Assembly: GCA_030425645.1 (NCBI GenBank) | Contig: JAUHZK010000002.1 | Coordinates: forward strand, 192,487 to 256,486 | Source of the DNA: Gammaproteobacteria bacterium | Lineage (GTDB): Bacteria > Pseudomonadota > Gammaproteobacteria > JAPPPA01 | Direction of reading: 5' to 3' | DNA length: 64,000 bases | Part shown: positions 4,439 to 61,378 of the stretch, in pieces | Position numbering within the stretch: the stretch's first letter is position 1 | Layout of the letters: each line of letters opens with the position of its first letter | Made by a program: the position numbers and the translations under genes | Notes under the pieces: generated by a model | The model's input: only the letters and a program-made list of their open reading frames with translations | Database searches by the model: none | Told to the model about the DNA's origin: nothing

Positions 4439-5051
<613 letters not shown>

Positions 5052-5485: not shown

Positions 5486-5628
5486 GGAACTAGGGTAACA
5501 AAATTAGTAGAGGGCGAACGCTATCTATGGGCAAGCTCGGCAATATCAAGCCTAAAGCGGTCGCCAATCACCACAAAGCTAAGCTATATTGCCGGGCTTT
5601 AAAGACCCACCGCAAAAGAGCCTAGGCA

Positions 5629-40784: not shown

Positions 40785-41207
40785 ATGAGGACTGCCGAAA
40801 CACACACAGCCCGCAGCGAATTCGGCCACTTAATGTGGCTTTACGAACGGAACTACCAACTCGCAAGAAACCTATTGGGAAGCATTAGCGAAGAGGCAAC
40901 CGAGGCCGAAATTCAAAGCAAAAATGATGATTTAGCCCTGAGTATCACCCTACTCGATAGGCAGCGGCACACTGAAACCTGGCATCTGACTTATTGGTTT
41001 CACGATGGCGATAGCGAGATAGCCGACCCTGATATTGAGCTCAAGCTTTATCACGACACCAAACAAGCCGAATGTTGGCGAGTCGGCAACCACGACCATT
41101 TAGAGCTATTGCGCGCCTTTAAAACCGAAGCCACCGACGCCCTAGAGCGCAAGTGGCAACGGAATATGATGCTGCATAAGTGGCTGCAGTATTTACTGCA
41201 GTCTTAA
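40785..41207 (+). CDS. DUF1249-family protein (YqiB-like)
   Basis: WLYERNYQLARNLL, TWHLTYWF, KLYHDTKQAECWRV and MLHKWLQYLL align with the E. coli YqiB conserved blocks. Confidence 0.8.
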   Translation: MRTAETHTARSEFGHLMWLYERNYQLARNLLGSISEEATEAEIQSKNDDLALSITLLDRQRHTETWHLTYWFHDGDSEIADPDIELKLYHDTKQAECWRVGNHDHLELLRAFKTEATDALERKWQRNMMLHKWLQYLLQS

Positions 41208-41318: not shown

Positions 41319-42330
41319 CTATTGCGGCACCCAACCCGCAGGGTTACTGGCATAGAGGTAGTTACCCGCAACTGGATCTAAACCGTTATCGATCGCTACA
41401 TGAACCCACGAGCTTGGCCCAAACACAACATCATCAGGACAATGCGCTGCAATATCTAAGTGGATGGTCAGTGAGCCCGTGTCAGCATTCGCTGTGTAGC
41501 TAGTACGATCAGCACCCAGCTCGACGTTACAACTGTTGCCGTCACTGCTGCCCGTGCTTGGGCCGTAACCGATCGTCATCCATGCCGTGGCATCGCCTAA
41601 TGGTGGCAGGTCTAGATCACCGTCACCACGAGTCACTGGGCCCGCGCCTTGGATCACTACGTCGATCTTCTCAGCACCGTCTAGGTTGCCGTTGATCGGC
41701 TCAAGGATCACAAGCGGTGTTGCGACACTAAGTAACGGGTCCGCTACGCGGCCGTTCGGATTGGTTGCGTAAAGGTAGTTAACACCCTCTTCACCATTGT
41801 CATCAACTGATACATGCACCCAAGTGCTTGGGCCATATTGGCTCACGCCGCAACCAGCAAGATCCATATGCAAGGTAATGTCTTCACCCGATACGGTGTA
41901 GTTAGCTGGATTGTCTAAACGCACTGAGCAGGCGTTGCCCTGCGAGCTGCTGGTGCTAGGGCCGTAACCTAAGCTGACCCAGGCCACAGCAGCACCTGGA
42001 ACTTGCAGAACGCCATTGTCGTCAACAACAGGACCGGCACCCGCAATCACGATATCCATGCCTTCTGCACGACCATCGCCGTCTTGATCCAGTCGTTGCT
42101 CCACTACATCAACCACTAATGGCTGACTGAATAATATGTCGCTTAACTCATTCTCGTTAGAACCAGGGCATACTACCCCCGAACTGGCCGGGTAAATCTG
42201 CACTTGGTGCTCTGCATCAACGATAAATCGAGTTCTATCCACGGGGCTAGCACCATCGACACACACGATGGCGTCATCACCAAGCTGCTCCAAGCTCAAA
42301 ATAGAGAAACCATCACTAATGACAGTACCT
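41319..42330 (-). repeat. Duplicated C-terminal module, about 165 aa x2 (...GYGPSTxSSxGNxC...GPSxWVHVxxDxxxxxxxNYLYAxNPxG)
   Basis: Two aligned copies ending ...VNYLYATNPNGRV and ...GNYLYASNPAGWVPQ. Confidence 0.6.
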
Positions 42331-45300
42331 ATAATTTCTTTGCTTTGGTCCAGCTGCATATGATCCAAATCAATGCTCGCGGCCGCCAAGTTGGTCAACG
42401 TTAGTGAAAAACCGTTACTCGTTTCTAGCGAGCCAATTTCCAGCCAATCTAAGCCCTGACGAATATATGGGGTGCTATGGCCACCAAGAGAGAACACTGG
42501 GCCACTAAGCCAAGGAATACCCCCTCCAACATAACCATCAACGATTCTCGGAACCGCCAACACGTGCTGCCCTTCGATGCTGAAAGACTCTGCCTCAATT
42601 AAACCGAAGACACTGGTATCTCCATGAGGCGCATTGCGCACAGCTAAGTCATTGACCCAATACGCACCATTCGGACCAAAATTCACTTGTTCTCTTTGCC
42701 CACCAGCCTTGGCATCTAAGCTCACACTATTCAGTGCACTTACCAACGCCGGAACGACTTTGTAGGTAACTTTCCGAGGCGCGTGATCTTTGCGGAATTT
42801 ATTAATGTATTCAGCACCATCGACCCACTCATCAATAATCGCTTGGGTGTAATGCTCATACCCGATAAAAGTCTGCATATCATGGCGATAACCCAGCTCG
42901 GTTAAACGTAACGCCATGCTCTCAACACCTGTGATAGGCACTAACTCGTCGAAGGTGCCGTGGTGGATCACCATAGGCACGTCACGAAGGTTCTCCAGCA
43001 GACGGTAACTCAACTGCGCGTTGGCCTGTCCACCCGCGCCGATGAAACAAGGGTTACCGGCACCTTGGCTCGGCACCTCAAAGTCACCGCCGCATAGAAT
43101 TTCGTCGTCAGGGCCTAAGCCCGTCCACGCACCCTGAGTGAGCGCGCCCGACACAGGGTAGCCAGCCGCAAACACGTCTGGGTATAAGCCGCCCATTAGC
43201 CATGTGCCATAACCACCCATCGAATATCCCGATAGATAGATACGACTTGCGTCGATGTTAAACAAACCAGGATTTTCAGGAATATCTGGCCCTTGATGGC
43301 CTTTAGCCAGGTCGGTACCGGCCACATCGGCAAAAACTTCCCAGAAATCTTGGTGAGCTTGGCCAACATACCACTGGCTAGTACCACGACCATGGGGTGT
43401 GGCGATGATGTTGCCCTGCTCCTCACCCAATTGGTGAATGATCTTTGGACTCCACGCGGCAGCCGAATGCACACGACCACCACGGTAGTGCATCCACATA
43501 GTGAGCGGTGCCGCAGTATTGCCACTAGAGTCGTAGTTACTTGGAATATAAAGGCCGTAGCGTTGGAAAACGTTGTCCTCAGCAAGCGACTCTTGTGAAA
43601 TATTCGCGCCAGCAATAAACAGCTTCTCGTGATAACCAACACTGGGCTCCATTGACTCTGCTACTGGATTTAGCAGCTTATTGACATCAATGCTTGCGGT
43701 GAAGGCGTCAACATTGCCTTCCCATAAGGCTAAGGCTTGTTGGCGGTCGTTATACATGCCCGCCACCGGCTCGTTGGGGCGATAAGCCAGGTTATAGAAC
43801 TCAGAGCCGTCAATATTAGTACTAACCAAACCAACGGTTACTACCCCGTCATTCGAAAGCTCTGCTAATGGCAGCTCTGCTCGCAAGATACCGCCCGCGC
43901 CTTCACTTGGGTCTGCCAATATGTTGCCATTAAGCAGTATCGCCGAATCAAAGCGGTCCGTTTTTAATCCGTACTCAGATAAATCGGCGGCACCCTCAGC
44001 ATTATCAATCAACAGCAAAACGTTGGCGTTTTCTGCGCGTTCTAAACGGGTGAATTCCACAGCCAGAGCCAGTGTATCGGCATCAACCGCGGACCATTCG
44101 ACACGGAACATGTCCCGCCCGTCAGCGGTCGCGTTGCCGTCGCCAAACCGATCTGGCACACCAGCCGGTTCTGGTGCACCAAACTGCTGTCCCAGCGCCT
44201 GCGATAAGGCATCTAAACGTTCTGCCCGGCTGTAGATAGAGCCGGCCAAGAGAGTTACCGCCAAACGGCGGGCGTCAGTGCCGTCATCAGCACCCCAGGC
44301 GTCATAGACGTAGTCATAGTAAACATGGCCACTATCAGAATAATGCGACTGCCCTGCCACCATGACCGCTTGCGGGTTATAAGGCTGACTTGAAGGCACT
44401 AAGCGGCCACGCTCCACCACCTCGCTCGCCAGTGGCAATCGATCAGGCACAGCAAACACACCAGTGCTAGCAGCAGAAGTGCGAATGGCCTCACACAGGG
44501 GTGCCAGCGGTAGTGCTTGGCATTGCGCCACTAAACCTTGTAATAGCTCTGCAGCTTCATCAATACCGACTAGGTCGTACAACAAGTTGTAGACGCAATT
44601 CACCCCACTTTCGTCAGGTGAGCAGCTACTGATATCAGTCAACTGGCCTAACGCCCCAGCGCAGACGTTCGGGTCTTGGGAGGCCATGCAGTTAATTAAC
44701 GATTGCTGCAGCCCCTCAGCGCTGCCGGCGGCTACCACCTTCAGATCAATCTCAGCAACCGTGCTGTCAAAGCCATCATCGGCAGTTAGAGCCAGACGAA
44801 TCGTGCTACCACAACCCGATACTAAGGCCTCACAGCTTGGCGCAGTAAAGCGCACCTCGGAACCACCATGCGGCTGCCGCAGCGGTGCTACATCACCACT
44901 ACTCCAAGTCAGCACGAGTGCATCAAAGTTCACATCGCTCACTGCCGCCGCCAACCGCACCGGTTCACCGGCAATCACGTTAAAGCTTTGAGGCATTTCC
45001 ACGCTAGGAGCCGTGTTGTTATTGACGGCTCCATTGTAGTCATCACGGGCAAAGCATGGGCCAGAGCCACAGGTGTTGATGAAATGGCCATCCGGCGACA
45101 TAAAGGCTGCTTTTTGAGCATAACCACGAATCGTACTACGTGGATCACTGTGAGGATCCCGGCCCCGGAATGGCGGCGTATTGTTGATTTCCGACGGTTG
45201 CGTACCGCCACCAAAGCCGCTGTCTTTGGGACCAATATCCCAATAAACCAATACAGAATTCTCGCTGTCACCCTCTGCGACCGGATCTAAGCCCCAAAAG

Positions 45301-48300
45301 GCATTATCACGAGCGTTGTGACGGCCATCCATCACCGCTTTAGCGCTGTCACTTGGGTCAGGAGAGTAGATGCGGCCGCCCATCGAGCGCGCACCAACAT
45401 CAGCCGAGATATCGGCCACTTGGTGGTCACCAAATGCCACGTGAATCAGTGCTTGGTGATCAGGCACGTCATGGCCTAAGTCACGAAATGCGCTGGCATC
45501 TTGCAAGTGGTTGGCATAACCATTGGTTTCTGCCCGGTCCCACAGCATTTGCATCATGCTTAGTACCAAACTTTGGTCGAGCGAATTCCGATAGCTGGCG
45601 TACATCACCGCACCGTAGCCATTGAAATCAACAGAACGGCGTAACAAGGTGCTGTAGTTCATACCGAACACGCCCAAGGTGCCACGCGTAATATCGCTAG
45701 AGGTGGCTAATACTGTGCCGCCCATAATGCCGCCTTGGCTGTTGCCGTCATAATAGACTTCGCTGTTATCAAACAGCGACGCACCATCTTTTTGGAAGGC
45801 CGGATGTGAAGCAAAACCGTTGTTGTGGCGCAAAGCGCGGGCAAGGTAATGCCAGTTAACCATGCCCTGCTGGGAACGATCAGCCAGCGTTGGGAAATGG
45901 GATACGTCAGTCAATATGGCAGCCACATTCGCGATATCACCGGTAGACATACCAATCCAATCAATCGCGCAAGGCATATAGTTTTCAGCGCGCGCAAAGT
46001 TCATCGCACTACCGCCGGTACCTTCACCTTTACCACCTAACAAGCCATGGCCGTATAGATTTGGACGAGCCGGGCCATCAGTAAATGCCTTCTGCGGAAT
46101 TGAGCACACAAACTCAACGGGCTGCTCAGCGATGCGGCCAAGCCGGTCTGGCAAGCCATCACCCCACAAACCACGATGATCCGGCTCATAGTTCAAGCGT
46201 CCATACACTTTAGGTAAGGCAGCCACGGTAAGCAGCTGATCTAAACCGCCAGCCATCTCGGCACTAAACGGCGCGCCGTTTTCTTCTGCAGTTGCAACTA
46301 CTTTACGTAACTCATCACAAAAACCCACCATCAACGGGTCGGTTGGCGCATCGCAGGCGCTATCTGGTGTTGTTAAATAACTCGGTACAAATAAGCGGCC
46401 ATAAATACGGCGTGGAATACTATCGCCTTCGCCACGATCTTCGACGCGATCAATGGTAAAGCGCGGCGCAGCACAGTTAGCGTCGGCTGACTCACTACCG
46501 TCGTAACTCACACAGTCGTTTTCGCCACCATTGGTGTCCAACGCATATAGCGCGTCATCGCGCATGTGCAACAAGCGACCGGCTAAGTTGCGGGTACTGG
46601 CTACGGTTAAGTCCCAAGCAAGGTATAAGTCACTGGTTGGGACATTTGCGGCCAATAGCTGTCCCAACAAGGCGCTCATATCGTCTGCACGACGGTTTAG
46701 CGCTGGGATATTCGTGCTCTCACCATCACGGAACACTTTGAAGGCTTCTGGCGCTTCAATTACGTTCAGATCCGAGTCACGCAGGTCGCGTAGCGCAACA
46801 ATATAAGTAGCGCCGTCTTTAAAGTTTTTAGCCGGACGAATCAACAAGGCGGGACCTGGGTTTGCCCATGGATCTTGACCGGGCAAGGCTGCGCCACCGT
46901 TGTCGTAGCACTGCTGACTAAACCCTTGCGAGAACTCGCGAGCATCATCTTGGCCACCCAAGCCGAATACTTCTCCGGCTCCATTACCCAAGCTACAGGT
47001 TTCAAAGGCGGTTCCGTTGGCGTCCAACTCTGCAAATACAGGATGACGCACTAAGCCGCTATCGGTTACTTCAAACACCATAACGGCGCTATCGGCCGGG
47101 AGGTCTTCGTTGTTCTGTAAGCGATCAAGCATTGGTACCGAACTGGCATGCGCATCGGTCACGTGCAAATCGACACCGGGCACCACGAGTTGAATCATCT
47201 GCCCTGGCGAGAAACCGTCATTCCGATTCCACTCAGTTGGGTCAATCGGTTTGCCGGCCGTATTGCGAGGCATAGCGGCGATATTGAAATTCACTCGCTT
47301 GCCGGTATCTGTGAAGTTATCCGGCGCAGTAAAGTGATTCGATGGGAATGGATACATGCAGTAACTAGGGTCAAGCATGTCACAACCCATCACCTCGGCA
47401 GCAATGGCATCCGCGGCCAAGTTCAGGTCGTAAGGCGCGTCCGCTGATGGCGCCTGTAGCCCAAATAGGCAAGATGGATCTGGGTTCTCTGCACAAGCTA
47501 TCAAGCCAGGATCGCGTGCGGTAGCCTCATTAAAAACCCCAGCTAGAACACAACTTTCTGCCATTAGATCATCAACACAGCTGGCCGCTAAATCTGGCGA
47601 CAAACGTTCTAGCACAATGGCTAATGGGCAGCGGCTATCGTCTGGCGCCACTTGGCATATCGCCGCAACGCTGGCTCCAGGAAGCCCTACATCACCGCTA
47701 TCTGCCTGTGGCGTTAATACGCCAACAGCGTTATCGACAGCAACCCAGGCACCTTGGTCATCCTCGGTGTATAGCGGCAGGCCAACCGTGCCTGTCACGT
47801 TCACAAGCGGCACGGTCACATCACGTGACGGCGAGCCAAAGAACTGTGGGTGGCTAGCGTAAAACAGCAACGCCAATTCATCGCCGGGTTCTAAACGTTC
47901 GGCAATACCCACCAAGTCAACGGTGTGTTGACCTAGGCCACGGACGGGCATCACTTGATCGTCGATTAAACCGTAATTCGGTAAGGCACCCGTCTTACGG
48001 CCCAAGCCTACAAATACAATGCTATCGCAGCCGACTGGGTTATCCATACCAGTCGCGTTACAGGCATCAAGCAGCTCATTGCCGCCAGCCAAACTACTGA
48101 TGGTGATATCAACAGAAGGCAAACCAGCTAAAACGGCGGGCTTTAAGATCATTCCAAGCGGCGCAGGTACTGGCAAATTGCCGGAAACATGAGGCTGGCC
48201 TGAAACCCCGTTGCTGGGTACAGGCGCGATCGGGGTTACATTGCGAGTGGTGTATTTGTTACTAGCACCACTAGCAATAACATCACTTTCCGCCAACGCA

Positions 48301-51300
48301 ATAGTGTCACCTTCGGTGCCTAACGCGAAGCAGGTGTCATCTAGCAGCTCTACCGTTTCACCGTCAGCTAACGGTTTCAGACGCTGATCAAACCATTTAT
48401 CGTCGTCAACATCACAACCGCCGCTATTCATCGGCGGCTTATCCGGCGCTTGCGCAAACGGTAAAGCATGGCCGCCGTTATGGGTGTAAAGCGACACGTC
48501 GGCGCCAGCGTCTAGTAGGCACTGGTAGTTCCACCAAGCTTCGTTGTAGTTAAACAAGGTGTCGACCATGCCCTGAGTAATAAGAACATCTAAGCCAGCA
48601 AAATGTGAGCGAGCGTCGAAGCTATTCGCAAGCTCGCCTTTATACTGTGACGGCACAAGATAGTCACCAATACCTGGCTTGCCAGCCACCCTATCGGGCA
48701 CGTTATAGCTCGCTACCGCATCAATCATCGGCACGGTGTCTGTGGTGTATTCAGGATATTGCATCGCCGACAAACCATTGGCGTCGCACCAATAACCAAG
48801 GCCGTGGTAATGGAACCAATCCAAGGCTTGGCGAGGAAATTCATTCAAGGCTGCGCCACGCGCTAAGGTCTCTTTGATAAACGGATCTTGCCCGTCTTCA
48901 TGCGGCAAACCACCACTGGAATGACCAACGGCTTCGCCAACGCCAATTAGAGCCACATCCCATAAAGACTTAACGGTGTCGCCCGGGTTAAGGCTATTCC
49001 GCAAGTCATGCCAAGTAATGTCTGGCGCAATCGCATCGAGTCGTTTTTTATGGTCAACGGTGGCAATAAGTAGCTGATAACCACCGCCATAACTGCCACC
49101 TTGAGCACCAACAACTAGGTTAATGCCATCGGCTTCACTAATAGCCGTTGCCGGGCGAGCGACAAACTCGCCATATTCAACGCTTTCAGGATCTTCATTA
49201 CGCCAAGAAAGGTAATCTAAGTTTTGCTCGGCCCAATCAAGAATCTGTAGCAAGTACTGACCTTCAAACTCCGGGTCCATGACGCGCACCGTGCCGCTGG
49301 TTTCACCAAAGCCGCGAGGGTCCCAAGAAATAACGGTGTAACCATTCTCTCGTAGTCCATCAAAGCCTGAGGTTGAACGCGAACCAGAATAACCCGGCCC
49401 ATGCAGCATTAATGGATGAGCGCCAATACCGTCATCACCACAAAGTACGCCAACCGGCTCAAGAACTTGGAAGCTCACTTCGTAGCCGTCATGGGTTGGC
49501 AGCTTCACTTGATAGCTTTGGTCTCCAGCAAGGTTTTGACCGCCACCAGCACAAGCCGCGTATTCCACCACAGGGCACCCTGCGTCGGTTGTTTCAACCC
49601 CCTCCATCGTGTTCGGACAAACATCATCGGCATTTGAAATGCCATCATTGTCATCATCTAATTGGCTTTCGGCACATCCATCCGCGTTAACGACGTCACC
49701 GGCAGTAGTGTCTTCACAGAGATCTACATCATCCTCTTTGCCATCAGCGTCAGAGTCTCTCTGCAAGGGATCGCTACCATCTTCAACCTCTTGGCCGTCC
49801 GAAACATTGTCGTCGTCCGTATCAGCATTGTTGGGATCGGTGCCACGCAACAACTCTTCTGTGTCAGATAAACCATCGCCGTCAGAATCGTTCAAAACGC
49901 CGCTCGAGCGCAGCCAAATTGGAGCAGAAACCAATTGATGGGCATCAGTTAGGCCGCAGTCTGCATCCTTCTTACAGACCACAACAAAGTGCCAATCTTC
50001 GTCCGCGCTTAATGACGTGCTTACTGTGTAAGACACACTTAACTCTGAGCCACCTTCGGCGACAGCACCTAATGGGGTTACCTCAGCGTCACTTGCTTCC
50101 GCATCGAAGCTACGGCCGCTAATCAAGACCACTTGGTCGCCTGCCTGGGCATTGCTTAAATTAATACTGAACTCAACCGCCTCTCTTGCAGATAGCTCAA
50201 CAATGCTGCCCATCCAGTCACTATTATTGGCACCGCTATTGATATAGAACCGCAGATCTCTCAATAGGTCACGATTACCATTTTCCGCATCTCGATCGGT
50301 GTAGCTACCACCTCTCACTGCCATCGTGCGGCGGTTGGCTAACGCCGCGTAATAATCTTTAGGGCTACGGCCTTTAGTCAATACAACTGTCTTGTGCTGC
50401 CCAGGACTAGACCAGTTAGTGCCGTGGTGATCCTCTGCTGCTACCGGAGACAGGTGCCAACCTTTTTGCAGGCCTTTGACGAACCACTCAATATCATCAC
50501 CACCGTTGATTTCCATACCAAAGACACGGGCATCGATTTGAGCGTCGATATACTCAAGGTCATTCCAATTGGCACCGCGGCCGATAGCGGCACCAGCCGC
50601 TGCGATCGCATGTGTATGCGGGAAGCCTCCATCAAACGGTGTCAATTTAGGATTGCCGCCGGGGTGATTAAAGGTAACCAAAGCGTCCGCACCACCGCCT
50701 TGGTCAACATCTTCTTTTAGCCAATTCCAAAATTGTTCCATGTCCAAATAGCTACCATCTATTTTGGTATTGGTAACGTTGGTAGAAAGGTAAACGTTGA
50801 GGTGGTTGTAATAGTCGTTGGTCCATTCAAAACCACGCATAGCCGTGAAGCCTGTGTAATTAATTTGGCCATTAACCTCTTCGGTGTCGCTACCCTCTTG
50901 CGCTTGTTGCAAGGTCGCGGCCCACTTCACGTAATCATCGTTACTTAAGAGTTGCTCGCACTTAAGCAACGTCACAATGCCGCCCAAGTCAGCGCTAGCG
51001 ACGGCGTTTGCCCAGCCACTTGGATCCTCGACTAGACCAATGCAGCTGGCGCTAGTAGTAACAGGAAGCTTTTCATTGTCTGAGTGTTCTGAAGACAACA
51101 TAAAGTCCAACTGCACGCCATTTTCCCCGGTGCGGCCAGCACGGAAATAGTCAGCAGGTATGGAATTAGGGTCGCCGTCTGAATAAGAACTGTGCTCATG
51201 TACTGCACCTAGCATATACATGAAGTCACCGTCGCCTTCTTCACCAACGTAATCTGGGCTCTCATCTACCAAACCCAGTTCAGGGGCTTCACAAAGAGGC

Positions 51301-54300
51301 GCTATCCATTGGTAACCACAGACTTCACGCAGTAAGTTGCGGGCGCTTCCAACCACAGCACACTCGGGGCTAAAGCCAGCTTCGGTGTCTGTACAACCGC
51401 CATCTGCCGCTTCTTCTGCGGTGAGCTTGGTAAGCTTTTCAGCTGCAGCGTTAGCGACCAAGCCGTCCGCAGTTTCGCCATAAAGGGGCACTCTAATCGT
51501 GCCACTGATTGCGACGGCCGGAATGGTCAAATCACGCGATGAAGTAATAATATGTTGTGGGTGATAGCCGTAAACCAGTAGCGCTAATTTGGCGCCAGCA
51601 TCAGTTTTCGCCAAGACCTCAGACACACCAATCATATCGATACTGTGTTCGCCTAAACCGCGAATAGGGATGATCTGGTCGTCGATCAAATCCCAATAGC
51701 CACTGCCATCGTTATAACCCAAACCAGCATAAACAATGCTGTCACAGCCTGTGCGTGTGGTAGGCACGCCACCGAACAAATCATCAGCTTGTTCACAGAA
51801 AGTTTCGTTTCCTGCCGGTGAACTTTGAGAAACTGGTACTGAATTGACGCTGATATCCAACCGAGGCATACCTGCCAACACAAGGCCTTCCTCGTCAACT
51901 TCAGCCAGTTCAATAACCGTTGGGCCTTTTGCCACCAGCGCCTGTGCTACAGGACCATTCGGAATAGGCAAATCGTTGCTGATAGTGAATGAGGTCGCTT
52001 CTGCTAGGTCAGCATCCGGATTACCTTTGTTGGCAATCAGCTCGGAACCACTTAACACCCAAGACTTATCACTATCTGAAATACAAACTTGGTTTTCGCC
52101 AGCAGGTAAACCTGAGTTGAAGTTATTGTTGCCACGCAACTTGCTATAGAGCCACGCTTTTTGGGCTCCACCTAAGCCATCACCATTGCAGCTACTGCCA
52201 TTACCTGATGAGTCTTGGAAACCAGGCACTACGCCGGTTGGTGAGCCATAGCTGGTAGGCTGCGCCGCATCAGGGGCCGCCAGCGGCAAAATATGGCCGT
52301 TTTGGTGCGTCATTAAACGAACATCACCACCTCGGGCACCGAAGCATTGGTAGTTCCACCAGGCTTCGTTGAAGTTAAACAAATTGTCCCGCATACCTTG
52401 GGCAAGTAAGACATCAACCGGCTGCAAGCCGTCGTCACCCTCGGCATCGACGACTCGCTCTGTGTTACGCGTACCAGGGCTAACCGTTAGGCCGCTTACA
52501 GTGGTGTTTGGATCAACTATGTCCCAAGTGCGATAGTTATACGGCATGGTGACGTCGGTTGGGCACCAGTAAGCCGAGCTGTTGTAGATGAACTGTTCAA
52601 TGGATTCACGAGGAAATTCATTGGTCGCCCCAGCACGTGCCAGCGTTTCGATAACAAACGGATCCAACCCTTGGTTACCACCGGTGTAACTGATGGCATT
52701 GCCCGCTGCGCCCATAAACAAACCCCAACCAGACTTAACCGCATCGCCGGGGTTAAATGAGAATGCCAAGTTATGCCAGGTTTGGTCTGGCACTAAGGCG
52801 TCCATACGTTGTTTAGGGTCAATATTGGCAATCAGCAGCTGATAAGCACCACCGTAACTACCGCCCGTCGCACCGACAACAAGGTTAAGGCCAGACTCAG
52901 CGTCAGTACGCTCATCTACTCGGCTAGAACCCGCAAAGCCTTCACCCTCTAGATGGGCGCTGGTAAGAACGCAGTTAGCACTATCCCGTCGGCATGCACT
53001 GTCATCGCGGAAGGCAGCAAAATCTAGGTTGGTTTCCACCCAATCCAACAGAGCGATTAAATTCTGACCTTCATGATCGGGGTCTAAAGCACGAATGCTG
53101 CCGCTACTATTGCCAAAACCGCGCTCATCAATCGTAATCACGATAAAGTCATCTAAGTAAGCCGAAAACGAATCGCGATTAGTCGATTTAGTACTCAGGA
53201 AACCATGACTATTCAGAATCACTGGATAGGATTCATCACAATCAATGTTTTCTGGCTCCATTACATAGAACGCAAAGGTTTCACCGTCCCCCGCCGCCGC
53301 TGGCATTATGACTTCATAGCCTTGGCCAGCCTCTAGGGCATTGCCGGTTGCGCAAGACGCTTGCTGATCAAACAGACAACCATCACCACCTACCGTTTCA
53401 CCTTCTGGGGTACCGGGGCATTGGTCGATGTCATCATCAACACCATCATTGTCATCGTCGTTATCACAAACGTCGCCATCGTCATCGCCGTCGGCATTGG
53501 CTTGGTCTGGGTTATCTACCAACGGGCAGTTATCGGCTCCGTCGTCCAAGCCATCGTCATCATCATCGTTGTCACAGGCATCACCCTCGGCGTCGCCGTC
53601 CGCATTTGCTTGATCAGGGTTATCAACTAATGGGCAATTGTCATTCTCGTCTCTAACACCATCTTCGTCAGCGTCGTCAGGGTGACCGGCATCACCGCCG
53701 CTCAAAGCACTTTCGGGGTCAATCGTCACATCAACAACAAACTCGCCGGCGCTGTTTTCAACCAAAGCGTATAGCGGCAAGTCAACCGAGCCATTAATGG
53801 TGACGAACGGCAAACTAGGATCCCGCGAAGCAGAAGAAGCAAACTGCGGATGCACCGCATAAAGCAACAGGGCCAATTCATCGCCCACCGCCAAGCGTTC
53901 TGCCACACCGGCCAATTCAACCGTGTGATCACCTAAGCCTCGAATCGGCTGTAACTGGTCATCAATCAAACTAAAGTTAGGCGCACCGGCAGCTTTACGG
54001 CCTAGGCCCACTAAAGTAATGCTGTCACAGCCGATCTGGTTATCCATGCCGCTTAAATCACAGGCCGCTTCATTAGCGCCATTTAGGCTGGCCACGGTCA
54101 CTGATAGGCGTGGAATACCCGCTAAAACAGCACCTTTACCCTCAACAAAGCCAAGCGATACAGAAACCGCCGCGTTACCGCTAGCGTGAGCGGCGCCGCT
54201 GGCGCCATTAGGTATCGGCAGTAACGGTGCCACCTCGCGATGCGTGTAATTCTCAACGTTCGCATTGGGCGCCAGAACCTCATCAGCATTCAGGGTAATA

Positions 54301-57300
54301 CTGCTGTTATCGCCTAGCGCAAAACAAACTTCTTCTTCACCAGGGTCTACTTCAGCTTCCGCTTTCAGGCGGGCATCAAACCATTCTTTCTGACTATAAG
54401 AACAACTGCCACTGTCGTTGCTCGCGTTGTCGGGCGCTTGCACATACGGCAGCACATGGCCACCGTTATGCGTGGCAACATCGACACTGGCACCGGCCGC
54501 ACTCAAGCACTGATAGTTCCACCACGCTTCATTGAAGTTAAACAGGGTATCGATCATGCCCTGAGTAATGAGTACGTCGAGGCCGTTGAAATGCTGAGCT
54601 GGGTTTTCAGATTCCACTAAACGGCCAAAGCCTAGGCGACCATTATCTTGTTTTGCAGGAACTCCATACACAGGGTTGACCTGCGACACCACCATCGGCA
54701 CTTGATCTTCACTGTATTCGGGGTAAGGCATGGTTGGTAAACCAGATGCTTTACACCAAGCACCGAAGCCACCGCGATATGCGAACCAATCTAGCGATTG
54801 ACGTGGCCAAGTATTGTCAGCCACGGCGCGAGCCACCGTTTCTTGAATGAATGGATCTTGGCCATCTTCCAAAGGCGACGTACCCGGGTTTTCTAACAAC
54901 GACGGCGAACCCGTCGCGGTGCCCATCGCGGCAAGGAATGCACCCCAAACTGTCTTAACCGTATCGCCAGGATTAAGGGCATTACGAAGGTCGTGCCAGG
55001 TAATATCAGGAATAATGGCATCTAAGCGTTTACGCTCATCCATCGATAGCGTGAGCAGCTGATAACCACCACCGTAGCTACCACCTTGTGCACCAACCAC
55101 CAAGTTAACGCCATCGGCGACACTGCTGCCTTCGTCAGTCATAGAGGCGCCAGCTGGACGCTCAACGAATGGGAATTGGCCGTTTCCGTTAGGCGTTTCA
55201 TCACGCCACGCTAGATAGTCGAGATTCTGCTCGGCCCAATCCAAAATTTGCAGCAGATGTTGGCCTTCGTAATTAGGGTCCATACCCCGCACTGATCCAC
55301 CCGCGGCACCGAAGCCATTGGGATCCCACGAGATCACGGTATAACCCGCGCGACGGTAGCTTTCAAAACCAGAGGTTGAGCGAGAACTGCTATAACCCGG
55401 CCCGTGCAGCATCAGTGGGTGTGCACCGTCAGCAATACGGCTGCAATCAATACCAGTGCCGTTTTCCGTATTGTCATCGCTGTCTAACGGTTCCAGTACT
55501 TGGAAGCTGTTGGCAAAACCATCTCGGCCAGGTAATACAACGTGATAACTACGGCCACCTTCAAGCAGCTCAGATGCTTCACAAGAAGCATTTTCAACCT
55601 CAGGCAGCTCCGGATCGACCACGCCGGTATCACCAAATACGGCACACACACCCTCCGGTAGATCGAGTGCTTGGCACTGTTCAGCTAGCGGCGTCTCTGG
55701 GTCCAATAAATCACAGAATTCAGCTGGACCGCCGACTTCGCGACACTGAGCCGCGTAACTACGTTGTACGTAATCGATATTGAAGCCGGCCATGCTAAAT
55801 AGGCAATCGCGACTACTCGGATCGTCTTGGCAAGCAACTAAGTATTCGGGCAAGGCATCAGCGGAGGCCGCGCTTTTGCCAAATAACGGCAAATAACCTT
55901 GCAGCCTAAGCAACGGTGCCGTTAATGGCCCCAGTGATACAAACTCCTCGTAGCCAGTAAACGGCACGATTAAGCCGGCATCGCCGCTTGCATCAAGATA
56001 ACGAAATTCTTCTTCTGGAATAATGTAGCCAAAACTGTTCTGCGTCAGCCCCAGCAACATTGTGGTTGCATTGTCTGACGGTAGACCTCGCAGCCACTCT
56101 CCAAAGGTACCGGTGGTTTCTCCGGGTATGGTAATAATTTCTAGGCCGTTTTCCGCACCACCGATGGTGATCCGGCTTACATCTGTAACAGCGTAAGGCG
56201 CTAGTTGCGGCAAGTACTTTGCCTGCTCTCCCAATAGGGGCAATTGATCAGTGTATTGACCCGCTTCGGTAAAGTCATAGTAGCCATTGAATGCACCCAA
56301 TAACCCTGCACCAACAAACAGTGAGTTAGTTACTGGTAGATACACCGTCTGATTAGATATCCCGACTACCGGTGCTAACGCTTTGACTTCACTAAAGTCC
56401 AACGCGGCCTCAGCCATGCCCTCACCTTTGCAGTGTTGGCTCTGATAAGCGCTGCTTTGTTCCGCATCGTAGTTTGGATTTACTTCACAGGGTTCGCCGT
56501 TACCACCAGAAGAGGCATCAGCAATGGGGCCATTAAAGAACAAGGCCACACCACCAATATCTTCTAAAGAGTCCGTTACGCCCAGCACGTAGTCTGGGTG
56601 TGGAATGCGAGGGTCTTCATTAATCGAAACCGGATGTCCACTAAACTGCATCAAGTGGGCAACAACCTTATTCGGCGTTACTAAGCTATTAGCTTGCAGC
56701 AAGGTTCCCAGTACGTCGGTTTCGGCGTTAGGGTCGGTTTGTTGAGGTCGGCGATAGCGATTAAAGTCTGACATATCACCTTGAGAAACCGTCAGCTCAA
56801 CAGGCTCTAGCGCCTCTACCGCGGCAGCAACGGCAGCGGCTGCCTGCGTCACCAATACATTTTCGATCCAATCCTGCGGCACGCCGCCCCACAAGCCCTG
56901 CAAGTCAGCCCCTGCATGAGTATGCGTTTGTCCAAACACGATATGGCTAGATGGGATGCCGGCTGCATCAGTAATAGCGTTGCGCACTTTCTGCTGGATG
57001 ATATTGCCGGCACCGACGGCATCTAGTGTGACAAAGGCGACTTTTTCCTCATCGCCCGCACTGCCAGGATTAGCAACCACCATCGCGCGCACCCAAGTTT
57101 GCTCAACACAATCTGTTGCCGCACTAAAGGTAGAGGCGTCGTACTCACTTTGATCGGCCAACAGACAAGGTTGCTCTGCAGGTTGTGTCAGCTGGTCACC
57201 AAAACCACCGAATGGGTCAGGGAAATTCTGGGTGGGATCAATACCGAAGCCGCCCAAATTGAACTTTTGTAGATGTCTTGCCCCAGCAATGCGAGGCTCA

Positions 57301-60200
57301 GATACACCGGCGATGTGCGCCGCAGATGGGGTCACCGGCAAGCGGCTGGCACCAACTCGTACGGCGGCATCAGCCGTTTCGTCGTCAGTAATCGTCACCG
57401 TCGTCGTCAGCTCGGCAGACAAGGTCGCGTTGCCATCTGTCTGCCAGAGCTGCACGGTAAATTGTTCGGCGAATTCATTCAGCGCGTCGTCATTAATAGT
57501 TACCGTCAGCTCCGCGCCACGGTCACCTTCAGCAAACACCACACCTTCTAGCCATGTGTTCGGATCGCCGTTGGCCGCGGCATCTCCCGCTTCACCAAAG
57601 TCGACGCCAGCGCCCTCCGCTGTGCCTTGACGCAGAGCAATGGACACAACCGTCTCGGCCACGGCGGGCTTATCCAGCACTACGCTAATGCTAACCATGG
57701 CCGCACTTTCCAGTACCGTCACTTGATCGGCGGCCATCGCCGCCTTCGGCAACTGGCTCTGGCCGCAGCCGGCAATATTGTCGCCATCGTCCGCCGCGGT
57801 ACCTGGACAGTTGTCATCGCTATCATCGACACCATCGTTGTCATCGTCGGCGTCACAAGCATCGCCACCATCACTAGCGCCGTCAGTATTTGTTTGCTCA
57901 GCATTGGCTACTAGCGGGCAGTTGTCCGACTGGTCGTCAACACCATCATTGTCGTCATCGCCATCACAGGCGTTGCCGCCGTCATCAGCACCATCGGTGT
58001 TGCTTTGATCAGCATTCGGATCCAATGGGCAGTTATCTTCTTGATCGGCTACGGTGTCATTGTCGTCATCGGTATCACAGGCATTGCCTCCGTCGGCAGC
58101 GCCATCGGTGTTGGTCTGATCCGGATTACTCGTTAGTGGGCAATTGTCAGCACCGTCAGCAACACCGTCTTCATCGTCATCACTGTCGCAAGCATTACCA
58201 CCATCGGCTAAGCCGTCACTATTCAGTTGGCCGGGGTTAGCATTTACTGGACAGTTATCGTCACCATCAGCGATACCGTCTTCGTCGTCATCATTGTCAC
58301 AGGCGTCGCCACCATCAGTCAGGCCGTCAGTGTTCGACTGTTCGGCGTTATCTATTAATGGGCAGTTATCGTCCTCGTCGGCAACACCATCTTCATCATC
58401 ATCATTGTCGCAAGCGTCACCACCATCATTTAGCGCATCGGTGTTCGCTTGGTCTACGTTCGTTACCAAAGGGCAGTTATCTGAACCATCCGCAACACCA
58501 TCTTCGTCATCATCCTCATCACAGGCATCACCGCCATCATTGAGGCCGTCAGTGTTCGACTGTTCGGCGTTATCTACTAACGGGCAGTTATCGTCCTCGT
58601 CGGCAACACCGTCTTCATCATCATCATTGTCACAGGCGTCGCCACCATCATTTAGCGCATCGGTATTGGTTTGGTTCTCGTTCGTGACCAAGGGACAGTT
58701 ATCTGAACCATCTGCGACACCGTCTTCGTCATCATCCTCATCACAGGCATCACCGCCATCATTGAGGCCGTCAGTATTGGTTTGATCAGCATTAGCGACC
58801 GTTGGACAGTTGTCTTCTACATCAGCGATGCCATCCTCATCTGAGTCGGCAGCCGGCTCATTGTCGTTAATGGTCAACACCGCCCGGCTGGGATCTGCCA
58901 ACGACGTCTGGCCGTGTTCGTTTTCAATACGGGTCAGTGCAACGGCAAACACTTTATTGGCATTGCTAACCGTATTGCCACGAATGCGAAGCAAGAGCTG
59001 CTGCTGCATTACACCAGCCGGAAAATCTATCTGGCCATCGCTAACGGCATAGTAGTCAGCGCCGGCGATAGCTGGCTCATCCACGCCACTCGCAGTGACA
59101 GATTCGGTACTGTAAAAGACGCTAAAGCTACTCGCAGGGTCACCTTGACGCTGCACATTCAAATAAACAGGCTTGGCACCAAAATCACCCTCGTCCACCG
59201 TTACGTTATCGGTGGCTAGCAATACCTTCGCAACCGGCTCAACAGGTGCTAATGAATCGTCATCAAAGATCACTGCGGTGGCTTGATCGCGGATGAACTG
59301 CACGTCATCAGAGGATGACAAGCGCAGACTTAGAAACTCGCTGTTTTCTACCTCGTCATCATTGATAACGGCGAGCTCAATAGCCTCCTCAACAACACCT
59401 GCGGCGAAGGTTAACTGGCCATCGTTTGCAACAAAGTCACTTGCACTTGCCGTTTCGGCAACGAAGGCATAGTCCACCGTGACCGCCTCAAGCGTATTCC
59501 CCCTGCGCTGGACTAAGATTTTAATGCTCTGCTCGTCCTCATCAACAGCGGCATCGGCCACCGTAAACTCCGGACGCAAACCAGTTTCACAAGAACCATC
59601 TGGCTCGGTACCGTTTTCGATATCCTGTGAGGAACAGAGAATATGTTCGAGGGCCTCTTCTTGGCCAACCAAGCCAGGACGCCCCTGGCCCGTATGCTCT
59701 GCGAGCAACTCACTTAAGCCATTCTGGTTGTGAAATTCGTTCGCCGGCACATCAAACCGTAACGCGCTGAAGGCTTCACCCTTTGCTGCGTCAACCGTAG
59801 CTTGGCTGATCTGAATACCGTTCGTTGGGTCGCCATCAGCGTCCAGCGTTAACAGCAGACGACTCTTATTAATAGCCGCATTGGAAATGTTTGAGTCGCT
59901 GTCTAAGTCTTGCAGACGAACCACCGGGGCAGCAGGCGCGTCACCCAAGGGGATATCGCCAAGGCTAAACGCCACGTGATCACCATCAGTGTATTCAAAG
60001 GCCCCTGTTGACGAGGTTACAGCCCCGGTTCCTTGACCGTTTAAGACGTAACCAACATTTGCGACCGGGCTGTCGATTAGACGGCCAGTTTTCTGCTCGG
60101 TAGGATTATTATCTCCACTGCCACCAGCACCCCCGCCGCCACAGGCCACGAGAATAAGAGACAATGCTGCAAGCAGAACTGCACGTGTCAAAGCGCACAT
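41319..60200 (-). CDS. Giant (6293 aa, 18.9 kb) multidomain lipoprotein. It combines Calx-beta modules, thrombospondin type-3 Ca-binding repeat arrays, a neutral-ceramidase-like domain, 3x CocE/NonD (S15)-like alpha/beta-hydrolase domains, a PHP-like phosphoesterase domain and a PHB-depolymerase-type esterase domain.
   Basis: A single uninterrupted ORF. Lipobox LILVAC at the N-terminus. See sub-features for the motif evidence. Purine-rich RBS-less start at 60200 with a 290-nt AT-rich upstream region. Confidence 0.9.
   Translation of the reverse strand: [6293 protein letters not shown]
42900..43700 (-). other. PHB-depolymerase/feruloyl-esterase-type alpha/beta-hydrolase (esterase) domain
   Basis: MWMHYRGG...[32 protein letters not shown] (anchor at about 43205-43240), a GxSMGG nucleophile elbow with a following second hydrophobic motif typical of the esterase_phb family. 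Confidence 0.55.
47600..49560 (-). other. CocE/NonD (S15)-like alpha/beta-hydrolase domain copy C (about 75% identical to copy A around the active site)
   Basis: [21 protein letters not shown]...[12 protein letters not shown]...[43 protein letters not shown] (anchor at 49081-49127). Confidence 0.6.
49600..49920 (-). repeat. TSP3-like Asp-rich repeat array no. 3
   Basis: [56 protein letters not shown]...[15 protein letters not shown]. Confidence 0.7.
50225..51215 (-). other. PHP-like (polymerase/histidinol-phosphatase) phosphoesterase domain
   Basis: [13 protein letters not shown] (anchor at 51177-51210) resembles PHP motif I (HxHTxxSDG). Downstream FNHPGG and EDHHG His clusters are consistent with PHP metal ligands. 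Confidence 0.45.
51400..53390 (-). other. CocE/NonD (S15)-like alpha/beta-hydrolase domain copy B (more divergent)
   Basis: [10 protein letters not shown] ... [18 protein letters not shown] (anchor at about 52840-52900). Confidence 0.55.
53400..53690 (-). repeat. TSP3 repeat array no. 2 (about 3 units)
   Basis: [80 protein letters not shown]. The plus-strand shadow is His/Arg-rich. Confidence 0.8.
53700..55565 (-). other. CocE/NonD (peptidase S15)-like alpha/beta-hydrolase domain copy A
   Basis: [10 protein letters not shown] ... [18 protein letters not shown] (nucleophile anchor at about 55085-55130), a GxSYxG nucleophile elbow typical of the S15/CocE family. Confidence 0.6.
55600..57080 (-). 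other. Neutral/alkaline ceramidase-like domain
   Basis: [16 protein letters not shown]...[16 protein letters not shown] (anchor at about 56910-56945) parallels ceramidase VVFVNLDACM...[25 protein letters not shown] parallels the ceramidase VPGEFTTMAGRRL block. Confidence 0.6.
57435..57702 (-). other. Third Calx-beta-like module
   Basis: [21 protein letters not shown]...GVDFGEAGD...[23 protein letters not shown] (anchor ELTVTINDD located at 57487-57513). Confidence 0.5.
57760..58845 (-). repeat. Thrombospondin type-3 (TSP3) calcium-binding repeat array no. 1, about 10 paired units of about 38 aa. At DNA level it includes near-identical 228-bp tandem copies.
   Basis: Reiterated [37 protein letters not shown]. 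The plus-strand shadow ORF 58144..58785 shows long exact repeats, indicating high nucleotide identity between copies. Confidence 0.85.
58940..59500 (-). other. Two Calx-beta-like modules (giant protein aa about 235-420)
   Basis: [50 protein letters not shown] and [46 protein letters not shown] show the Calx-beta pattern (DY/DF...G.L.F..GE....I.I.I.DD). Confidence 0.6.
60138..60200 (-). other. Lipoprotein signal peptide of the giant protein ([20 protein letters not shown], Cys+1 followed by a Gly-rich linker)
   Basis: n-region with Arg, h-region, and lipobox L-V-A-C. Confidence 0.75.
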
Positions 60201-60489
60201 AGCGACTCCACATTTTTGTAATTGGGTGTATTCACCGCATATTTATATGGAAGTGCTAATTGGCGACCTCCTCCTGAATCAGCGCAAGAAACCCTGACAC
60301 TAATCCCATTAGGTATACCTAACTATCGTTAAGTCGTCAATAATCTAGCCCAAAGTGCAAACATTATTCGACGGCGAAAAAGGCCCAAGATTTACCCGAC
60401 AAGATGGTGCCAGCCTTTGCGCGCAGCCGTTAGAATGCTGCCTAGAGCTATCGCCCCGTATCTGCCTGTTTTAGCTAAAAGGAATCTAC

Positions 60490-60972
60490 GTGTTTGTTTG
60501 GACCGAGGTATCGGAACCGCTTTCGCGCTTACTGTCGTTATATGGAATCGCCATTAGCCTCGTGAAGGCCGGAGAGGAAATACCGGGTAGTCATTGGGGT
60601 GATAGTGAAGCCGGCCTAATTGGCAACACCTTGTATCTGCGCACTGACACGCCGCTACATTCCGCCTTACATGAAGCCTGTCATTTCATCTGCATGGACG
60701 AGTCTCGGCGCGCCAATCTGCATACCGATGCCGGTGGTAGTTTTCACGAAGAAGATGCCGTTTGTTATCTGCAAATTCTGCTTACAGACTTTCTACCTGT
60801 GTGCACGCGATCAGAGCTTCAAAGAGACATGGACGACTGGGGCTACAGCTTCCGACTAGGGAGTGCAGAAGCTTGGTTCACCGAAGACGCTGACGATGCC
60901 CGCTCCTTTCTGCTACAGCATGGATTAATTAACGCCGACAACGTCGTTTGTATCGGCAAAAATAGAGATTGA
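60490..60972 (+). CDS. Small cytoplasmic hypothetical protein with an HExxH motif (possible minimal zincin-like metallohydrolase)
   Basis: 160 aa with a GTG start preceded by AAAAGGAA. LHSALHEACHFICMDE contains H-E-x-x-H plus a downstream Glu. No signal peptide. Confidence 0.5.
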   Translation: MFVWTEVSEPLSRLLSLYGIAISLVKAGEEIPGSHWGDSEAGLIGNTLYLRTDTPLHSALHEACHFICMDESRRANLHTDAGGSFHEEDAVCYLQILLTDFLPVCTRSELQRDMDDWGYSFRLGSAEAWFTEDADDARSFLLQHGLINADNVVCIGKNRD

Positions 60973-61348
60973 TTAATGTCAACAATAGCTATTTCGCTCG
61001 TTCACAACGCGAGTTAGCCCAATTCAAAGTTACCCACATTTCTTGTGGATAACTCAGTGGGTAACCACCGGTATAATCCGTGAAACCCGCGTGGAACCGT
61101 AACTTTATAAGATTGCATTTTTTTTACACAACAAAACATTAATCATATATATCAATGGCTTATGGAGAAGTCGTCTTTTAAGTACGAACGCCCACCCTAA
61201 GGTCTATAAAGTCCGCGTTGATGTGCATAAAGGCCTTACTCCGGGCATTGAACTGGTAAATTTCTGCCAAAGCAAAAAGTTAACAGTTGTTCTGCGGCCT
61301 GCAAAAACCTGTCCAAATTAGGCAAAAACCCTACGGGGCCCAAGCATA

Positions 61349-61378
61349 AAAAAAGCCGGGCAAATACCCGGCTTTTTA
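61349..61378. terminator. Bidirectional rho-independent terminator downstream of sat
   Basis: aaaaaaagccgggcaaatacccggcttttt: a perfect 8-bp GC-rich stem flanked by A-run and T-run. Confidence 0.85.

Follow-up and report, generated by a model that had tools for sequence, protein, structure and literature searches.

A 6293-residue predicted lipoprotein with seven hydrolase domains is the most fused known member of a family of module-shuffling giants

Among proteins longer than 5000 residues, bacterial representatives are almost all non-ribosomal peptide synthetases or polyketide synthases (NRPS/PKS) or adhesins (PMC11573180). VolA of Vibrio cholerae is surface-exposed, frees fatty acids from exogenous lipid and, as a precedent for a surface lipoprotein lipase, captures the products from lysophosphatidylcholine (PMC3656444). 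SslE of E. coli is a lipoprotein that is secreted and surface-anchored via the type II system (PMC3707838, PMC5012682, PMC8881592), and its N-terminal region was described as unique to SslE homologues (PMC8881592). Here we analyse a 64,000-nucleotide stretch from a Gammaproteobacteria bacterium (contig JAUHZK010000002.1 of assembly GCA_030425645.1, positions 192,487 to 256,486; called the window below), whose minus strand holds a single open reading frame (ORF) for a lipoprotein of 6293 residues. A first-pass annotation, made from the sequence alone, had read this ORF as an undescribed hydrolase fusion and had set it apart from known bacterial giants, which it took to be mostly adhesins or NRPS/PKS, as the above survey agrees. 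Its domain reading proves essentially right; the main change is that the protein is no singular oddity but belongs to an as yet undescribed family of lipoproteins with several hydrolases each, whose modules shuffle fast and of which it is the most fused one known.

The ORF is uninterrupted, as had been claimed: it starts with ATG behind a ribosome-binding site and runs for 6293 codons to its stop with zero internal stops, giving a mature product of 6274 residues, 662 kDa and an isoelectric point of 4.05. The NCBI contig has an entry for exactly this protein, and a copy from 24 Joint Genome Institute (JGI) contigs (P0428) has the same length and is identical at 6292 of 6293 residues. In at least five Logan short-read assemblies of the locus the C-terminal 5676 residues are unbroken; these contigs stop at about residue 617, within a TSP3-coding tandem DNA repeat (58249-58775; 222-nt unit, 2.4 copies, 88% matches by tandem repeats finder, TRF) that encodes pairs of TSP3 units. 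This repeat is the sole spot where copy number could be mis-assembled, and its unit is in frame. Relative synonymous codon usage correlates between the giant gene and the other window genes at r = 0.946, and GC content and codon usage resemble those of the surrounding core genes (gyrA, glycine cleavage, thyA, ilvA, lpx genes). Recent horizontal acquisition was rejected because composition and codon usage are native, and a pseudogene or mis-assembly was rejected on the P0428 copy, the unbroken Logan contigs and a collinear relative (P0277, see below). The giant gene is therefore native to the chromosome and reproducibly assembled, and we hold it to be almost certainly real and intact. At residue 1293 (codon 56322-56324) the window copy has Ser and the JGI copy Pro; at least 90% of the 15 ceramidase-like sequences aligned have Pro in this column (TNPLF), and Ser1293 may be a true variant or else an error of sequencing.

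Where ‘six different’ hydrolases had been counted, the fusion of many hydrolases stands and the count does not: there are seven hydrolase domains of five types (Table 1), namely one neutral-ceramidase-like (Cer), three CocE/NonD (S15a, S15b, S15c), one PHP, one VolA/Pla-1-like (Pla) and one LC-Est1/poly(hydroxybutyrate) (PHB)-depolymerase-type domain (Est). All seven keep their full sets of catalytic or metal-binding residues and, going by these, each is apparently active. Strict family thresholds were passed for S15, S9, TSP3 and Calx-beta and failed for ceramidase, PHP, VolA/Pla-1 and the short-chain-length polyhydroxyalkanoate (scl-PHA) depolymerase; profile annotation and structure prediction, which the first-pass annotation had proposed as a check, left its ceramidase, S15, PHP and esterase assignments standing.

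For Cer, a family profile built from 15 sequences finds human neutral ceramidase (4WGK) at E 5.8e-5 and aligns its GQTHxHAG, HPxSIN and IPGE stretches to the corresponding motifs (HxH/H/E) of that enzyme. The putative zinc-binding or catalytic residues H1093, H1095, H1189, E1361 and Y1392 are invariant in these 15 sequences, with the Tyr presumably serving as a ligand. The three S15 modules score 38.5, 39.9 and 46.1 bits against Pfam Peptidase_S15 (PF02129; gathering threshold 23), and the serine of the predicted GGSYGG elbow, the Asp and the His of the triad are invariant across 18 such modules from 10 genomes. By self-comparison S15a is about 60% identical to S15c and about 40% to S15b, and each module continues into a conserved C-terminal part of about 250 residues that no Pfam model recognises. 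The closest solved relative of the S15 profile is 8YZO (E 4.5e-7), deposited as "Lipase", on which a literature search found nothing relevant. Single-sequence searches of the PDB gave marginal, chance-level matches for S15 and none for Pla, Cer or PHP.

The PHP-like domain is one on which Pfam is silent, with no match to PF02811 even at E <= 10, and the case for it comes from structure. An AlphaFold2 model (predicted local distance difference test 84.5, predicted template-modelling score 0.88) retrieves 3E38 at E 8.5e-12 with Foldseek, followed by PsfC (5e-6) and endonuclease Q (EndoQ, 1e-4), and all eight ligand positions are conserved: H3001, H3003, H3039, E3125, H3133, H3179 and D3257 are invariant in 53 sequences and H3259 is kept in at least 90%. 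The module also occurs alone, in 149 secreted proteins or lipoproteins of about 500 residues, none with a Pfam domain.

More than 1500 residues had at first been left unassigned, and part of this sequence holds the seventh enzyme, Pla, together with accessory domains of Est. Ser4821 of Pla, the nucleophile in GNSQGG, is invariant in 62 sequences along with H4718, D4925 and H5017, and D4888 and H4926 are nearly so. Its stand-alone relatives are "hypothetical proteins" of about 700-940 residues with more than 1296 matches, none of which has a Pfam match to the catalytic region; 55 of 99 with a Met start show a lipobox-like motif. The VolA/Pla-1 model TIGR03502 matches 8 of the 62 Pla relatives weakly (best E 2.2e-5), so to our minds Pla would be a distant relative of VolA/Pla-1 at most and not a member of that family. 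A search of its profile against the PDB gave no sequence relative, and in the fold search the C-terminal half found generic alpha/beta hydrolases only and the N-terminal half matched no solved structure.

Est, which sits between the flanking domains U and U2, has an invariant triad (S5660, D5751, H5783) and scores 32.5-36.1 bits against Pfam Peptidase_S9 (threshold 22.6). The claim of a GYSMGG esterase is borne out by its profile, which matches LC-Est1C (3WYD) at E 8.7e-29; the whole U+Est+U2 unit recurs as a stand-alone family of 24 proteins of about 750-890 residues, many of them lipoproteins. Since the Est profile also matches the PHB-depolymerase-family esterase 8DAJ (E 1.3e-12) and Est itself matches NF050058, the catalytic domain of extracellular scl-PHA depolymerases type 1 (E 1e-16), one may ask whether the protein is a surface depolymerase array for polyesters such as PHA, cutin/suberin or plastics. 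This we find distinctly unlikely: at 61.1 bits, well below the NF050058 cut-off of 150, Est is not a member of that family, a PHA-binding domain was not detected by the Pfam scans, and the ceramidase-like and PHP domains have no part in polyester hydrolysis.

That the catalytic residues are kept in full across paralogues and orthologues also decides against another reading, in which the protein would be an adhesin or matrix protein with inactive, enzyme-like binding modules, or else an assembly artefact or pseudogene. What is usual for bacterial proteins of this size (PMC11573180), the presence of TSP3 and Calx-beta, both typical of adhesins, and the break of short-read assemblies in the TSP3 repeat all lean that way. 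Set against this are the same-length product on the JGI contigs, the undisturbed frame of P0277 over some 4500 aligned residues at 58-71% identity, and the finding from self-comparison that structural repeats account for only about 15% of the length, the remainder being unique enzyme modules. We rejected an adhesin with dead enzyme domains, and the reading as a whole is largely refuted and scarcely credible any longer.

The earlier view that the repeats do no more than scaffold the catalytic domains agrees with this share and with Pfam scans of the giant protein that show no families of RTX, Bap or Ig-repeat adhesins and none of NRPS/PKS. TSP3 and Calx-beta modules, likewise claimed before, both exceed their Pfam thresholds: TSP_3 scores E 2.3e-56 (187.6 bits, 10 repeats) with a second cluster at 46.4 bits, Calx-beta E 5.8e-29 (101 bits, three copies within residues 1-1000; the limits of copies 2 and 3 were drawn by eye from the sequence), and TSP3_bac 34.5 bits. 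For the PKD-like domain between Pla and U, PF22352 and PF18911 are carried by homologues.

As predicted, the N-terminus is that of a lipoprotein. Residues 1-20, MCALTRAVLLAALSLILVAC, form a signal with Arg6 in the n-region and the lipobox L17-V18-A19-C20 at its end, which matches the pattern [LVI][ASTVI][GAS]C and is followed by GGG. This signal peptide is the sole hydrophobic segment of the whole protein, and the C-terminus shows no sorting helix. All 110 cysteines of the mature protein are closely paired (55 possible disulfide pairs), many in C-x6-12-C loops at module borders, and acidic residues far outnumber basic ones (980 Asp+Glu versus 304 Lys+Arg); close Cys pairs and acidity fit an exported, disulfide-bonded, calcium-loaded protein. 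Stand-alone Proteobacterial homologues of the Pla, Est and PHP modules often have a lipobox, and the actinobacterial ones inspected have ordinary signal peptides. Taken by its sequence features, the protein is very probably an exported multi-hydrolase with active domains.

Directly behind the lipobox lies an N domain that has no Pfam model. Its family counts 4160 representative proteins (E <= 1e-3), usually of 200-1000 residues, in which the domain almost always stands straight after a lipoprotein signal, and its profile matches SslE/AcfD (PDB 23PX) at E 5.5e-12 through a motif of about 60 residues within the NT2 domain (residues 274-332). This shared motif with surface-displayed SslE bears on whether the protein might instead face the periplasm and remodel the cell’s own envelope lipids in outer-membrane lipid homeostasis. 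The lipobox with Gly at +2 by itself predicts only Lol sorting to the inner leaflet of the outer membrane, and secretion genes were not found nearby, as such a role would have it. A chain of 662 kDa with about 13 TSP3 repeats and seven enzymes is, however, hard to fit into the periplasm, the actinobacterial Pla, PHP and Est homologues have ordinary secretion signals in organisms with no outer membrane, and the rapid gain and loss of modules described below fits an environment-facing role better than housekeeping. A periplasmic role thus seems very unlikely to us, and we go on with export to the surface.

To place the protein, one genome per species was scanned with the Pla module as query and all modules were then mapped on the retrieved loci; module maps come from 22 loci, with relatives’ ORF lengths measured stop-to-stop. 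Shuffled versions occur in about 20 species-representative genomes; in Spongiibacteraceae, Nevskiales and Salinisphaerales they take the form of ORFs that range from about 2500 to over 6800 residues and differ in module order and copy number. The combination of domains had been called undescribed, which holds in that no paper on this architecture was found in a literature search and does not hold for its being a one-off. Among species representatives the closest relatives are Spongiibacteraceae, with the metagenome-assembled genome (MAG) SAT61 (at least 2971 residues, 50% identical and collinear with residues 2260-4792), UBA5047 (at least 6815), Zhongshania antarctica (3387) and Spongiibacter thalassae (3697). 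Litorivivens, of the same family, has 4787 residues in one MAG and, in another, 3806 with an adjacent ORF of at least 2750. The group of Nevskiales, Salinisphaerales and others includes Salinisphaera sp. PC39 (3329), Oceanococcus (4138), Abyssibacter (3087), Fontimonas (2603) and Neomelitea salexigens (2819); a Nevskiaceae MAG has at least 4361. A lipobox and N domain open nearly all complete members, and the commonest core is Cer followed by Pla. In databases these proteins go by "hypothetical protein", "Calx-beta domain-containing protein" or "pimeloyl-ACP methyl ester carboxylesterase".

The closest relative of all, P0277 (6117 residues), answers only in part the question, raised in the first-pass annotation, of homologues with the same domain order: it is collinear with the window protein but lacks the TSP3-flanked S15b+PHP block and, in place of the terminal pair R1/R2, has a different C-terminus, an extension of about 1590 residues with at least one Ceramidase_alk domain above threshold. 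These differences imply that whole modules come and go at the calcium-binding linkers between close relatives. Relatives also carry a second neutral-ceramidase type that the window protein does not have and that passes the Pfam threshold (about 39.6-73 bits; L030:15974-20797, L072:12314-17254, L039:12551-17614, L033:16076-20734, L063:12590-15244, L046:14737-17637); the C-termini of P0277 and P0282 likewise hold modules absent from the window protein, and in P0282 a PI-PLC-X-like domain scores 22.7 bits where the threshold is 23.1. At one locus of a long-read MAG (L037:7612-14878) two overlapping ORFs of 661 and 1989 residues share the ceramidase-like module between them, owing either to a frameshift, which would make the gene a pseudogene, or to a long-read indel error. 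Because modules are reshuffled among the giants while Pla, PHP-like and U+Est+U2 also exist as separate secreted proteins or lipoproteins without a Pfam model, the window gene is best seen as an extreme fusion within a module-shuffling family.

What such an array would do is suggested by the identity of its domains. After Sec export and acylation at Cys20, the Gly at +2 would direct Lol sorting to the outer membrane, from where the protein would be displayed at the cell surface; its large size, its secreted homologues and the N domain argue for this last step, and a type II secretion route is possible, given the motif shared with SslE. Seawater calcium would stiffen the spacers and so hold the enzymes away from the cell as an array, which may dismantle complex amphipathic substrates nearby, most likely polar lipids (phospholipids, sphingolipids, aminolipids): the phosphoesterase would remove head groups, the serine hydrolases would cut O-acyl esters and the ceramidase-like domain N-acyl amides, and the fatty acids and head groups released would be captured locally rather than lost. 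A phosphoesterase combined with O-acyl ester hydrolases and an N-acyl amidase, plus the extra modules of relatives, fits a stepwise breakdown of polar lipids, and a lipid theme is also indicated by the weak VolA/Pla-1 likeness of Pla, the "Lipase" 8YZO and the additional Ceramidase_alk and PI-PLC-X-like domains of relatives. Among the hosts are taxa whose names refer to hydrocarbon use (Zhongshania aliphaticivorans, Polycyclovorans) along with Nevskiales; these marine, hydrocarbon- or lipid-associated lineages specialise in hydrophobic substrates. Based on the domains, we tentatively favour surface scavenging of lipids or esters, a reading whose chances we put at close to even. The more specific idea of an unrecognised class of shuffled, lipid-anchored "lipolytic assembly lines", which would strip sphingolipids, aminolipids and phospholipids from algae, sponges or other bacteria step by step beside the cell, is attractive yet rather doubtful.

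Several points weigh against lipid scavenging at the surface. Cer stays below the gathering threshold of Pfam Ceramidase_alk (25.2-25.9 bits versus 32.1), and Pfam detects no Ceramidase_alk_C domain in the giant protein. The match of Pla to TIGR03502 is very weak, 14.9 bits for a cut-off of 383.9. No fadL, transporter or regulator gene is conserved beside giant genes or stand-alone Pla genes, fadL in particular being found neither in the flanks of the giant gene nor among 10 sampled flanking genes of relatives nor in recurrent neighbour families, and no secretion-system gene is seen among the annotated parts of the window. About 1500 residues, made up of the domains N, U and U2, the pair R1/R2 and the first half of Pla, have no assigned role.

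Lastly, the Pfam names of the serine hydrolases are those of peptidase families, Peptidase_S15 and Peptidase_S9, which is where an alternative begins: a surface-tethered peptidase, amidase or acylase array might degrade peptides, lipopeptides or N-acyl amino compounds. Its S15 and S9 modules would then be exo- or oligopeptidases, or hydrolases of amino-acid esters, and its ceramidase-like domain would cleave N-acyl amides in general. The top Foldseek matches of the hydrolase half of Pla do include acylaminoacyl peptidases and DPP-IV, and the gene ahead of Pla in Halieaceae belongs to the beta-lactamase family, of which D-aminopeptidases are members. Among solved structures, however, the S15 and Est profiles come closest to a lipase and to carboxylesterases, no Pfam or PDB match for an S9-type beta-propeller was obtained (the U domain upstream of Est being without any match), and a PHP phosphoesterase, like the PI-PLC-X-like domain of a relative, misfits a purely peptide substrate. 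A gene for a PvdQ-like N-acyl amidase 650 bp downstream of the giant gene would suit the peptide array, but it is not conserved and a convergent gene lies in between. On balance we consider such an array improbable.

The same enzymes could also be turned on living membranes, since a set of phospholipase-like, ceramidase-like, phosphoesterase and PI-PLC-like domains resembles membrane-damaging enzyme sets, and the protein would then be an offensive array that lyses algae, bacteria or host tissue instead of scavenging. The host lineages are associated with phytoplankton, and members that live with sponges are suggested by the name Spongiibacteraceae. In Omnitrophota, giant proteins with hydrolase domains have been proposed to degrade prey cell walls (bioRxiv 10.1101/2023.11.21.568195). 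However, the giant gene has no toxin-delivery, immunity or contact-dependent system in its vicinity and sits, with native codon usage, among core housekeeping genes, and the modules are ordinary secreted enzymes in free-living Actinomycetota as well. We regard an attack function as quite improbable and keep lipid or ester scavenging as the preferred reading.

Table 1. Positions in the window of the giant gene, its modules and adjacent signals (aa, amino-acid residues)
Feature	Residues (aa)	Coordinates	Strand	Remarks
Whole ORF	6293 aa in all	41319..60200	(-)	same-length copy in independent assemblies
Ribosome-binding site GGAG		60206..60209	(-)	5 nt 5' of ATG, read from sequence
Lipoprotein signal peptide	1-20	60141..60200	(-)	lipobox LVAC; Cys20 putative acylated residue; +2 Gly
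N domain	21-205	59586..60140	(-)	follows lipobox in giant relatives, 31-39% identity there
Two Calx-beta domains	~210-450	58851..59573	(-)	PF03160
Ten 37-aa TSP3 repeats	~450-815	57756..58853	(-)	PF02412, TRF, cysteine periodicity, contig ends
Third Calx-beta domain	~820-940	57381..57743	(-)	PF03160
Cer module	940-1530	55611..57383	(-)	neutral-ceramidase-like metallo-amidase (putative), Cys-rich tail
S15a	1534-2170	53691..55601	(-)	CocE/NonD-type serine hydrolase with conserved C-terminal part; triad S1708, D1884, H1915
TSP3 linker 2	2170-2278	53367..53693	(-)	Pfam TSP_3 E 3e-12, TRF
S15b	2279-2935	51396..53366	(-)	triad S2448, D2605, H2636; Pfam 39.9 bits
PHP module	2950-3435	49896..51353	(-)	PHP-fold phosphoesterase, metal-dependent (predicted), with C-terminal beta-sandwich
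TSP3_bac-type linker 3	3436-3536	49593..49895	(-)	PF18884 E 1.9e-8
S15c	3537-4150	47751..49592	(-)	triad S3703, D3880, H3911; Pfam 46.1 bits
Cys-rich linker	4151-4232	47505..47750	(-)	C-x8-C loops
Pla module	4233-5060	45021..47504	(-)	C-terminal half alpha/beta hydrolase
PKD/Ig-like beta-sandwich	~5061-5160	44721..45020	(-)	weak match to NF038111/NF038112 C-terminal region
U + Est + U2 unit	5161-6020	42141..44720	(-)	400-aa U, Est aa ~5561-5830, 190-aa U2
R1 and R2	6032-6150 and 6164-6289	41322..42140	(-)	~125-aa tandem pair, 45% identical
Intrinsic terminator		61350..61377	(-)	strong; of upstream ATP-sulfurylase gene

The gene surroundings add little to function. A terminator upstream (61377-61350) and a convergent DUF1249 gene downstream (40785-41207, plus strand) suggest that the giant gene is transcribed on its own. 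The 1.15 kb on its 5' side (60201-61350) hold no convincing gene and could house a promoter and regulatory elements; a 160-residue ORF there (60490-60972, plus strand) has no Pfam match, a promoter scan gave no convincing promoter, and an Rfam search in and around the giant gene no match. The amidase gene mentioned above (37822-40665, minus strand) encodes a 947-residue penicillin-amidase or PvdQ-like N-acyl amidase (PF01804, E 9e-86), and JGI labels a near-identical copy "acyl-homoserine lactone acylase PvdQ". Neither this acylase nor the other window neighbours were found beside relatives, whose sampled flanking genes are unrelated housekeeping or pilus genes, and conserved neighbourhood was dropped as a functional clue for that reason. 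About 30 kb off, and so too distant to be tied to the giant gene, lies a gene for a 449-residue protein (8381-9730, minus strand) that weakly matches the Omp85 superfamily (E 2.5e-7) and might act in outer-membrane assembly or in translocation.

Clustering all ORFs of 80 loci revealed lineage-specific synteny only, in Halieaceae (beta-lactamase-family gene, gcvP, alaS, greA). There and in related MAGs the beta-lactamase-family gene (PF00144; L048, L052, L059, L060, L061, L064, L069, L073, L074, L082, L085; for example L059:8431-9798, E 3e-67) in every case sits immediately ahead of the stand-alone Pla-like gene and in the same orientation, which suggests a two-hydrolase operon. The only neighbour seen with a role in lipid metabolism is a plsB-type glycerol-3-phosphate acyltransferase gene (L072:1613-4273, minus strand) of Spongiibacter thalassae, some 2 kb upstream of the gene for the giant; coincidence is possible.

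A family of giants composed for the most part of active hydrolases would add a third kind to NRPS/PKS and adhesins. The fusions moreover indicate which orphan families probably work together: they link five extracytoplasmic enzyme types, three of which lack a Pfam model and count hundreds to thousands of unannotated members. The proteins also offer new esterases, lipases, amidases and phosphoesterases. Since their hosts include marine groups with ties to hydrophobic substrates (Spongiibacteraceae, Nevskiales and the above hydrocarbon users), they may play a part in how particulate and membrane lipids are turned over at sea. If the assembly-line idea were true, the fusions would act as a Rosetta stone that connects the Pla-like, PHP-like and U+Est+U2 families, none of which has a Pfam model or a characterised member, and the SslE-like N domain would stand for a module by which very large lipoproteins in general are exported and anchored.

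The individual domains belong to known superfamilies, and it is the architecture as such that is undescribed in the searchable literature; the "giant protein" of a preprint on the Spongiibacteraceae-related BD1-7 turned out to be unrelated and of the adhesin type. With neutral ceramidases (PF04734, 4WGK) Cer has in common the catalytic N-terminal domain, its HxH/H/E motifs and a downstream Tyr, and it differs in scoring below threshold without a detectable Ceramidase_alk_C, in its Cys-rich tail and in being embedded in a polyprotein; Pseudomonas aeruginosa, by comparison, has a secreted ceramidase. The S15 copies score above threshold in Pfam and have the GGSYGG elbow and the Ser/Asp/His triad of CocE/NonD hydrolases but form a distinct subfamily of about 640 residues that includes the Pfam-unrecognised C-terminal part. 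The PHP module has the two-domain fold of BVU_3505 (3E38), a PHP barrel plus beta-sandwich with His/Asp/Glu motifs, yet is 14% identical to it, has no Pfam PHP match and belongs to its own family of about 500 residues.

As whole proteins, VolA (VCA0863) and, by prediction, the giant are both N-terminally lipidated hydrolases of aquatic Gammaproteobacteria, and Pla resembles VolA/Pla-1 (TIGR03502) in its layout, an N-terminal part of about 450 residues and then an alpha/beta hydrolase with GxSxG. VolA, however, is a single enzyme of about 800 residues co-transcribed with fadL, whereas Pla is one of seven enzymes in a chain of 6293 residues with no fadL nearby. SslE/YghJ/AcfD is, like the giant, a large lipoprotein with enzyme cargo and shares the NT2 motif of about 60 residues with the N domain; it has 1520 residues and a single M60 metalloprotease and is encoded beside the type II secretion system, in contrast to seven unrelated hydrolases with no adjacent secretion genes. 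Cellulosomal and multi-domain carbohydrate-active enzymes (CAZymes) and the Omnitrophota giants (bioRxiv 10.1101/2023.11.21.568195) follow the same extracellular logic of several catalytic domains that are joined by linkers and binding modules and reshuffled from species to species, but the cargo here consists of esterases, amidases and a phosphoesterase rather than glycoside or peptidoglycan hydrolases, and is combined with a predicted N-terminal lipid anchor and spacers of TSP3 and Calx-beta. The nearest architectural precedents are hence of two sorts, single-enzyme surface lipoproteins (VolA, SslE) on the one hand and multi-catalytic modular polysaccharide degraders on the other.

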